Below are positions 16,374 to 17,060 of a DNA stretch of 21,382 nucleotides, piece by piece. The stretch lies in the IMG/VR virus record IMGVR_UViG_2874962485_000007. One strand, written 5' to 3'. Position numbers and translations under genes: made by a program. How positions within the stretch are numbered: position 1 is the first letter of the stretch; every line of letters starts with the position of its first letter. The notes under the pieces were generated by a model. That model searched no databases. It saw nothing but the letters and a program-made list of their open reading frames with translations, and was not told the origin of the DNA. The stretch is from a virus. Lineage: Duplodnaviria; Heunggongvirae; Uroviricota; Caudoviricetes.

Positions 16374-17060
16374 ATGACCTCAATAAACATATTTATGACA
16401 GTTGCTGATTTCAAACGGCCCAAATTGGAGCTCCCAAACGGGGCAAACAAACTACTACTGCACTCTTGCTGTGCTCCATGTTCCGGTGAGGTGATGGAGG
16501 CGCTTCAGGCCTCGGAAATCGACTACACCATCTTTTTCTACAACCCGAACATTCATCCTCAGAAAGAGTATTTAATTCGTAAGGATGAGAATATTCGCTT
16601 TGCTGAACAACACGGCGTGCCGTTTATTGATGCTGATTACGACACAGACAACTGGTTTGAACGAGCCAAAGGAATGGAATGGGAGCCCGAACGAGGGATC
16701 CGTTGCACCATGTGTTTTGACATGCGTTTTGAGCGGACAGCGCTGTACGCCGCTGAAAATGGTTTCAGTGTGATCAGCAGTTCACTGGGCATTTCACGCT
16801 GGAAAAATATGCAGCAGGTTAACGACTGTGGGCGGCGAGCCGTCGCGCATTATCCGGGCATGGTGTACTGGGATTATAACTGGCGCAAGCAGGGCGGCTC
16901 GTCCCGTATGATTGAAATCAGCAAGCGCGAAAAATTCTATCAGCAGGAATATTGTGGCTGTGTGTATTCTCTGCGCGATACCAATCTACACCGCAAATCT
17001 CAGGGACGCCCTCTTATCAAAATTGGTCAACTCCACTACGGTAAAGAAGAGAAGGAGTGA
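16374..17060 (+). CDS. queH: QueH-like (DUF208) epoxyqueuosine reductase homologue
   Basis: N-terminal signature [11 protein letters not shown] followed by [11 protein letters not shown] and further conserved Cys residues (CTMCFD, CGC), as remembered for the QueH/DUF208 family. Start uncertain (16374 or 16395); no clear Shine-Dalgarno at either. Confidence 0.6.

Follow-up and report, generated by a model that had tools for sequence, protein, structure and literature searches.

The queuosine (Q) pathway of Escherichia coli, which includes tgt and queA, has been summarised previously (PMC5372724). Its last step is carried out by QueG and has been described as cobalamin-dependent (PMC4646009, citing Frey 1988), and QueG has been listed among the cobamide-dependent enzymes of E. 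coli (PMC11841063). A second reductase, QueH, has been described as Fe-dependent, and in Staphylococcus aureus QueG and QueH coexist with distinct cofactors, which has been read as a response to cofactor availability (PMC13443448). Structures of a QueH protein (PF02677, COG1636, also known as DUF208) are available for the Thermotoga maritima enzyme (7LC5/7LC7/9DEU). Zallot et al. reportedly found in 2017 that an E. coli queG mutant regains Q when given DUF208 genes and that recombinant QueH is without cobalamin, and they are said to have described Acinetobacter baylyi (ADP1) as a carrier of both QueG and QueH. With regard to viruses, it has been stated in a 2019 survey that homologues of QueA, QueG and QueH were not found in those analysed (PMC6884629), and we found no study or mention of QueH as prophage cargo of E. 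coli or Shigella in the searchable literature.

In this study, we analysed a stretch of 21,382 nucleotides, referred to below as the window, which is recorded in IMG/VR as a virus of the Caudoviricetes (IMGVR_UViG_2874962485_000007) and in which an earlier note, made from the sequence alone, had pointed to a lone QueH-like gene next to a hok toxin gene. By its gene content, the window represents a lambdoid prophage of the Shigella flexneri type that has decayed and is riddled with IS elements. A Pfam scan was made of the 23 longer ORFs, a few short ones (70-136 aa, mostly small IS ORFs) being left out; 20 of them encode ipaH, IS transposases, recE, Rha/Ash, cI/cro/YdaT, replication, DUF977, QueH or hok proteins, and the remaining three gave no Pfam match. 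Three IS3-family and two IS66-family elements are present, and between them lie the lambdoid pieces, namely a recE fragment, a Rha/Ash antirepressor gene, cI, cro, ydaT, replication genes, a DUF977 gene, a hypothetical gene, queH and hok. The features that frame the prophage are the following:

1-1812, + strand: ipaH-type ORF at the left end, with a type III secretion LRR N-terminus and a NEL E3-ligase domain (Pfam)
2675-3831 (+ strand) and 4844-6000 (- strand): inverted pair of an IS3-family element, copies of one element
within 3873-4800: recE (Exonuc_VIII) fragment, flanked by the inverted IS3 pair
6514-7470, - strand: Rha/Ash antirepressor-like ORF (Pfam)
7865-11776: IS3-family element and, after it, a complete IS66-family element with three ORFs, inserted between the antirepressor gene and cI
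17690..18894, + strand: IS3-family element with orfA at 17690-18028 and orfB at 18055-18894 (Pfam HTH_Tnp_1 and rve)
19434-21382, - strand: second IS66-family copy, at the right end of the window

The IpaH-type ORF at the left end indicates that the prophage is of a Shigella or EIEC type. Its decay was judged against an intact prophage with 99.2% identity over 5.8 kb, that of E. coli FDAARGOS_944, which has ybhA as a neighbour and lies next to the mod and gal operons. Relative to this prophage the segment 3873-4800 is inverted, which points to an IS-mediated inversion; the O-like replication gene has lost 11 bp at 14435, and the ydaV-like frame now ends in a stop codon at a site (14968) with a base change. 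The IS3-family element at 17690..18894 cuts off the prophage after hok, homology to the intact prophage ends at 17657, and Q, the tRNAs, the lysis genes and the virion genes beyond this point have been lost. Judged by these lesions, the prophage is defunct and can neither replicate nor lyse. Yet queH, which lies 1.4 kb downstream of the broken replication genes, is intact, with no frameshift or stop codon in 666 nt. As an observation apart from queH, Rfam matches to the C4 antisense RNA (7123-7210, - strand, 75.7 bits) and to isrK (7235-7311, - strand, 61.5 bits) fall in the 5' part of the Rha/Ash ORF and on the same strand; together with the antirepressor these resemble a c4-ant immunity module of the P1/P7 type, here set within a lambdoid prophage.

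The queH gene and its immediate surroundings contain the following features:

16297..16317, + strand: GC-rich hairpin CCGCCCGAAAGGGCGG, just 5' of the module boundary, at the 3' end of the upstream gene
16320..16394, + strand: upstream block travelling with queH (start of homology in 65 of 86 loci; seven-context alignment)
16346-16359: TCT(R)ATGCTACAC block, 36-49 nt 5' of the queH start (seven-context alignment)
16395..17060, + strand: queH coding sequence, probably 221 aa plus stop codon (Pfam match, PDB 7lc5 match, cysteine set, structure model, conserved start)
16516, + strand: A where FDAARGOS_944 has G, a private nonsynonymous change giving G41E (G48E in 228-aa numbering)
17118..17293, + strand: hok/sok regulatory region (match to Rfam sok, RF01794, with 117 bits; gathering score 59)
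17231..17443, + strand: mok ORF with the nested hok gene (hokD-type, 51 aa) at 17288-17443 (Pfam HOK_GEF, E = 9.8e-23)

The mechanical ORF extends from 16374 to 17060 (+ strand, 228 aa) and begins 21 nt 5' of the ATG at 16395. We suggest that this second ATG is probably the true start, giving a protein of 221 aa, because RefSeq starts a 99.7%-identical copy of queH at the equivalent ATG, strain 200177 has ATT at the position of the upstream ATG 16374, and chromosomal QueH homologues are 214-222 aa long; furthermore, ATG 16395 is invariant in all seven aligned copies. Against the ORF, Pfam PF02677 (QueH) gave a match with E = 2.6e-65 and 220 bits (cut-off 23.5) over positions 1-174 of the 175 in the profile. 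This match is far beyond chance, and PF02677 was the sole Pfam domain found in the ORF at E <= 0.01. The only PDB entries matched by sequence were those of T. maritima QueH (7lc5 and its mutants, E = 3e-22). A profile search against NCBIfam returned no model match and was uninformative.

The prophage protein has retained all seven family-conserved cysteines, C32, C33, C36, C111, C114, C194 and C196 in 228-aa numbering, in the pattern CCxPC...CxxC...CxC, which is the set assigned in the family to the [4Fe-4S] cluster and adjacent iron. Residue conservation was read from an alignment with 79 near-full-length representatives of clusters at 50% identity and T. maritima QueH. Each of the seven cysteines is conserved in 81-99% of 66-80 diverse representatives, and all are invariant in 24 close homologues. 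Also kept (in the same numbering) are N57, N59, I60, P62, E65, Y66, R69, W94, E106, G108, R110, R118, A126 and K144. Cys36 aligns with Asp13 of the T. maritima enzyme, from which the prophage protein thus differs; a cysteine is the family norm at this position (93%), from which it is the crystallised enzyme that departs. A structure predicted by AlphaFold from 24 homologues is of moderate confidence (pLDDT 73.8, pTM 0.76); T. maritima QueH entries take the first five places among its PDB matches (E = 6e-11 to 1e-9), with a target-normalised TM score of 0.81-0.83 and an rmsd of about 3 A; the next matches in fold are LarE and TtuA, which belong to the same alpha-hydrolase superfamily. The predicted structure therefore shows a QueH fold with an adenine nucleotide alpha-hydrolase-like core. 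In its full-length domain, its cysteine set and its predicted fold the prophage protein is like T. maritima QueH, and we consider it, on its sequence, to be a genuine and intact member of the QueH family. The identity proposed in the earlier note is thus borne out by the Pfam and PDB matches, the conserved residues and the fold, and the two motifs on which that note had relied are both present in the translation of ORF 16374-17060. The family assignment of the exact protein is already in RefSeq and UniRef, and the enzyme itself is ordinary.

A further difference from the T. maritima enzyme, and one that is private to the Shigella copy, is G41E. The A-for-G change at 16516 is the sole difference between the window and FDAARGOS_944 within the queH coding sequence. 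Residue 41 is glycine in all eight other copies compared and in 23 of 23 close homologues aligned, whereas across 76 diverse QueH representatives it is glycine in 54% and glutamate in 8%. It is a variable loop position of the wider family and is absent from T. maritima QueH; we believe that the substitution is probably tolerated.

Downstream of queH, the HOK_GEF and Rfam sok matches confirm the hok neighbour reported earlier, and the type I toxin-antitoxin locus is intact; a promoter-like site was found by a consensus scan at 17082-17111, and RefSeq places hokD at the equivalent position in FDAARGOS_944. The hokD gene follows queH in the window, in FDAARGOS_944, in an E. coli B derivative and in S19-651, and mok/hok follows it in Escherichia phage HannyBb. 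In an E. coli O157:H7 strain (Z1832), queH is followed instead of hok by a type II restriction-modification pair (locus 5872-7882), made up of a cytosine methyltransferase and an NgoMIV-family endonuclease, and in strain 200177 by a DUF1971 gene. The upstream neighbour likewise varies by strain and is a 137-aa hypothetical gene, a DUF977 gene or a truncated methyltransferase gene. The homology shared with the window starts at 16320-16329, about 70 bp 5' of the start codon, in 65 of 86 other loci; it ends after hok in 63 of the 86, at about 17220 in 14, and exactly at the queH stop codon in four. An obligate queH-hok unit is ruled out by these four loci and by the neighbours in O157:H7 and 200177. 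As the downstream neighbour is interchangeable, the adjacency of queH and hok is frequent rather than obligate, and since the flanking genes differ between strains, queH is an independent cassette in a hypervariable cargo slot. The presence of a restriction-modification pair in this slot suggests a hotspot for defence and addiction cargo. In its slot, its sharp boundaries and its swappable neighbour, queH resembles other lambdoid morons such as hok/sok and restriction-modification genes; unlike these, its product is a tRNA-modification enzyme and not a toxin, a defence or a virulence factor. In the intact relatives queH is on the same strand and belongs to the early-right operon, where it follows the replication genes and precedes Q.

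The gene is also alone with respect to its pathway, as had been noted before. Besides queH, the window ORFs scanned include no queuosine or 7-deazaguanine gene, nor does the annotation of the FDAARGOS_944 prophage or of the stretch of HannyBb that was read (13011-45272, 77 of 90 features).

The block of about 75 bp upstream of queH appears to be part of the module. Within it, TCT(R)ATGCTACAC is invariant, save for the one R (A/G) position, in seven of seven genomic contexts and is kept even in the context where all other upstream homology has been lost; by eye, a TGnTATTTT motif resembling an extended -10 element can be seen in the seven-context alignment. These features might mean that the block acts as a promoter. 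A consensus scan of the + strand found no sigma-70 promoter 5' of queH, and no Shine-Dalgarno sequence is evident there. The absence of a convincing promoter and Shine-Dalgarno sequence upstream counts against the proposed expression of queH in the lysogen. The gene order of FDAARGOS_944 and HannyBb places queH on the early-right strand, and read-through from PR after induction is therefore expected. We also considered a preQ1 riboswitch, the upstream block containing a conserved GTTCTRATGCTACAC which we take to resemble part of the preQ1-I aptamer. This candidate was rejected: Rfam gave no preQ1-I, -II or -III match between 16200 and 16460 even at E <= 10, the fold of the region is like that of shuffled sequence (z = -0.11) and the candidate stem is not conserved. 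The upstream block itself had no match in Rfam; a weak, chance-level match further upstream merely reflects the hairpin CCGCCCGAAAGGGCGG, which among the seven contexts occurs only in the window and FDAARGOS_944.

DNA of queH was found in 995 of 5426 complete E. coli genomes (about 18%), at 1014 chromosomal and three plasmid places, 985 of them near full length, and all E. coli copies among the matches listed are annotated as epoxyqueuosine reductase QueH. The exact 221-aa protein is present on at least 1000 contigs as 'MULTISPECIES: epoxyqueuosine reductase QueH [Shigella]' or from Shigella flexneri. A phage-borne queH had been regarded as unexpected in the earlier note, a view that does not hold given how many E. 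coli genomes carry the gene and that RefSeq already names it QueH. Another intact copy lies in a Qin-like prophage of E. coli B-LamR (NZ_CP115179.1, 5022-5687; gene order dicB...queH-hokD-rem). Close relatives of the protein are encoded by 189 contigs in IMG/VR. Phage HannyBb (45 kb) has queH at 95.6% identity in the same slot, between the replication genes and mok/hok plus Q, and is the sole isolated phage to have it at the DNA level among 50,697 records. A tblastn search of the phage collection gave 25 matches, and here too HannyBb is the only real isolated phage with queH; short 'Bacteriophage sp.', Listeria and Staphylococcus records (unannotated fragments, 31-51% identity) were left out of this count. 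The record 'Acinetobacter phage MD-2021a' (CAKLQH020000001.1) was rejected as a phage, as it is a 328-kb contig with soxR, cynX, tadA and gltC around its QueH homologue and evidently a bacterial contig mislabelled as phage.

The closest proteins outside Escherichia and Shigella, at 79-86% identity, are from Erwinia, Providencia, Proteus, Photorhabdus and Gibbsiella, for example, and homologues in this range also occur in Ewingella, Dickeya, Sodalis, Arsenophonus and others. The surroundings of the chromosomal gene were read in two genera: in Providencia the neighbours are housekeeping genes (a dapE-like peptidase gene, tmcA and purC), and in Photorhabdus they are not phage genes. As these two homologues sit among non-phage chromosomal genes, the prophage gene looks like a captured enterobacterial housekeeping queH. 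It is thus similar in sequence to the chromosomal QueH of Providencia, Photorhabdus and Erwinia but, unlike QueH at such housekeeping loci, it is carried by lambdoid prophages and one temperate phage and always coexists with a host QueG.

The gene queG is present in all 5426 complete E. coli genomes and belongs to the core, whereas queH is accessory. Consequently, the prophage QueH is in E. coli always a second, non-homologous reductase. The earlier statement that enterobacteria normally use QueG for this step is thus correct for E. coli but does not extend to the Enterobacterales, many of which have a QueH. Like QueG (E. coli yjeS; cobalamin and two [4Fe-4S] clusters), the prophage QueH is predicted to convert oQ34 into Q34 on the four GUN tRNAs, and it would do so in the same cell; the two proteins share no homology, and the cobalamin-binding, ferredoxin and HEAT-like domains of QueG are not matched by the prophage protein. 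The situation is like that in the double carriers S. aureus and, reportedly, A. baylyi ADP1, where two non-homologous reductases with different cofactors serve one step. In these two organisms both genes are chromosomal, whereas here the second reductase is on a mobile prophage and varies between strains.

Pairwise comparisons among seven prophage copies gave dS values of up to 0.45 and dN values of no more than 0.023, with dN/dS between 0.04 and 0.13. By this measure prophage queH is under strong purifying selection, which argues against a decaying passenger as well as against a neofunctionalised enzyme.

Taken together, we propose, with a probability of roughly 0.7, that the gene encodes a functional QueH reductase and is an accessory gene of the lambdoid replication-to-Q slot, which would perform the last step of queuosine synthesis without B12. 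The most likely role of the protein appears to be the completion of queuosine on host tRNA. According to this model, oQ34 would be made by the host tgt and queA products on tRNA-Asp, -Asn, -His and -Tyr, and QueH would then reduce the oQ epoxide to queuosine on the host tRNA, using a [4Fe-4S] cluster and an adjacent iron instead of cobalamin; the prophage gene would be a cobalamin-independent back-up for this step, brought in by a temperate phage. QueG needs cobalamin, which is not synthesised de novo by E. coli or Shigella, and the presence of queH therefore most plausibly frees the step from B12. We infer that the enzyme would be active, that it would be expressed in the lysogen and that independence of B12 would be beneficial, although the selective benefit itself is a matter of conjecture. 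A more far-reaching proposal, which we put forward only tentatively and regard as somewhat doubtful, is that queH serves lysogenic conversion by making the maturation of queuosine independent of vitamin B12.

Other explanations place the benefit elsewhere or deny it. QueH could mainly serve the phage: upon induction or infection its gene would be read as part of the early-right (PR/nin) operon, and the enzyme would top up queuosine on host tRNA for good decoding of phage mRNAs rich in NAU/NAC codons, with any benefit to the lysogen incidental. This would agree with the location of queH in all intact relatives, within the early-right operon and on the same strand, after the replication genes and before Q, with the failure of the scan to find a consensus promoter of its own, and with the retention of the gene by a viable isolated phage, HannyBb. 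However, the retention of an intact queH in a prophage unable to replicate or lyse fits poorly with such a function, as does its fixation in Shigella, where the exact protein is found on at least 1000 contigs; moreover, the movement of the upstream block with queH across contexts suggests that the gene has its own control region, and the lytic cycle is short for re-modifying a tRNA pool. We therefore consider a function for the phage to be unlikely. The Shigella copy might instead be inert, either unexpressed or crippled by G41E, and kept by clonal inheritance of a defunct prophage. The prophage is indeed dead, with its 11-bp deletion, stop codon, IS insertions and lost late region, and the substitution affects a residue that is glycine in all close homologues and other copies; persistence of queH in S. 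flexneri could accordingly be due to clonal inheritance rather than selection. Against inertness stand the undamaged reading frame amid broken neighbours, the natural occurrence of glutamate at this variable loop position in 8% of the diverse family, and the strong purifying selection on prophage queH overall, and an inert passenger thus seems rather improbable to us.

It had also been suggested in the earlier note that the protein may be a repurposed Fe-S enzyme. Instead of tRNA oQ, such an enzyme would have a different substrate, such as a derivative of 7-deazaguanine in DNA or some other epoxide. The use of 7-deazaguanine chemistry on DNA is known from phages (PMC6884629), and queH is detached from other queuosine genes. 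[quoted passage not shown] Those clusters need a transglycosylase and genes for preQ0 synthesis, however, and neither was found in the window or its relatives: DpdA/TGT-like, FolE, QueC, QueD and QueE proteins are absent from the scanned window ORFs and from the annotation that was read for the two intact relatives. In addition, the protein is 79-86% identical to chromosomal QueH of Enterobacterales, with the compared family-conserved positions unchanged, and relaxed or diversifying selection was not seen among the seven copies. With the examined conserved residues all kept and purifying selection strong, the suggestion finds no support in our data, and we regard it as very improbable.

A functional QueH reductase that acts on host tRNA thus remains our preferred explanation. 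If the more tentative proposal of lysogenic conversion were true, strains with QueG only would carry oQ rather than Q where corrinoids are scarce, such as inside host cells, in urine, in blood and in aerobic B12-free media, while lysogens would still make Q. This would shift the decoding of NAU/NAC codons and possibly the translation of virulence regulators such as VirF of S. flexneri, and QueH would be the first tRNA-anticodon-modification enzyme shown to be fitness cargo of a temperate phage. Poor translation of VirF and a loss of invasiveness have been described for tgt (vacC) mutants of S. flexneri (PMC1950534), and a possible link between queH and Shigella virulence biology, through tgt and VirF, is suggestive.

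The point of interest is what a second, B12-independent reductase gives to the lysogen or the phage. If the enzyme is inactive, prophage queH is just a correctly annotated accessory gene. If it is active, the last queuosine step would depend on B12 in another way than in K-12 in about 18% of sequenced E. coli as well as in S. flexneri; many extraintestinal pathogenic lineages and a derivative of E. coli B would be among the affected strains, and queuosine in the E. coli B lineage may thus depend on B12 differently from that in K-12. Such a strain-level difference in tRNA modification is currently ignored when results from K-12 are generalised. An active enzyme would also mean that the 2019 statement on the absence of QueA, QueG and QueH from viruses needs revising and that a tRNA-modification enzyme joins the cargo moved by temperate phages between enterobacteria.
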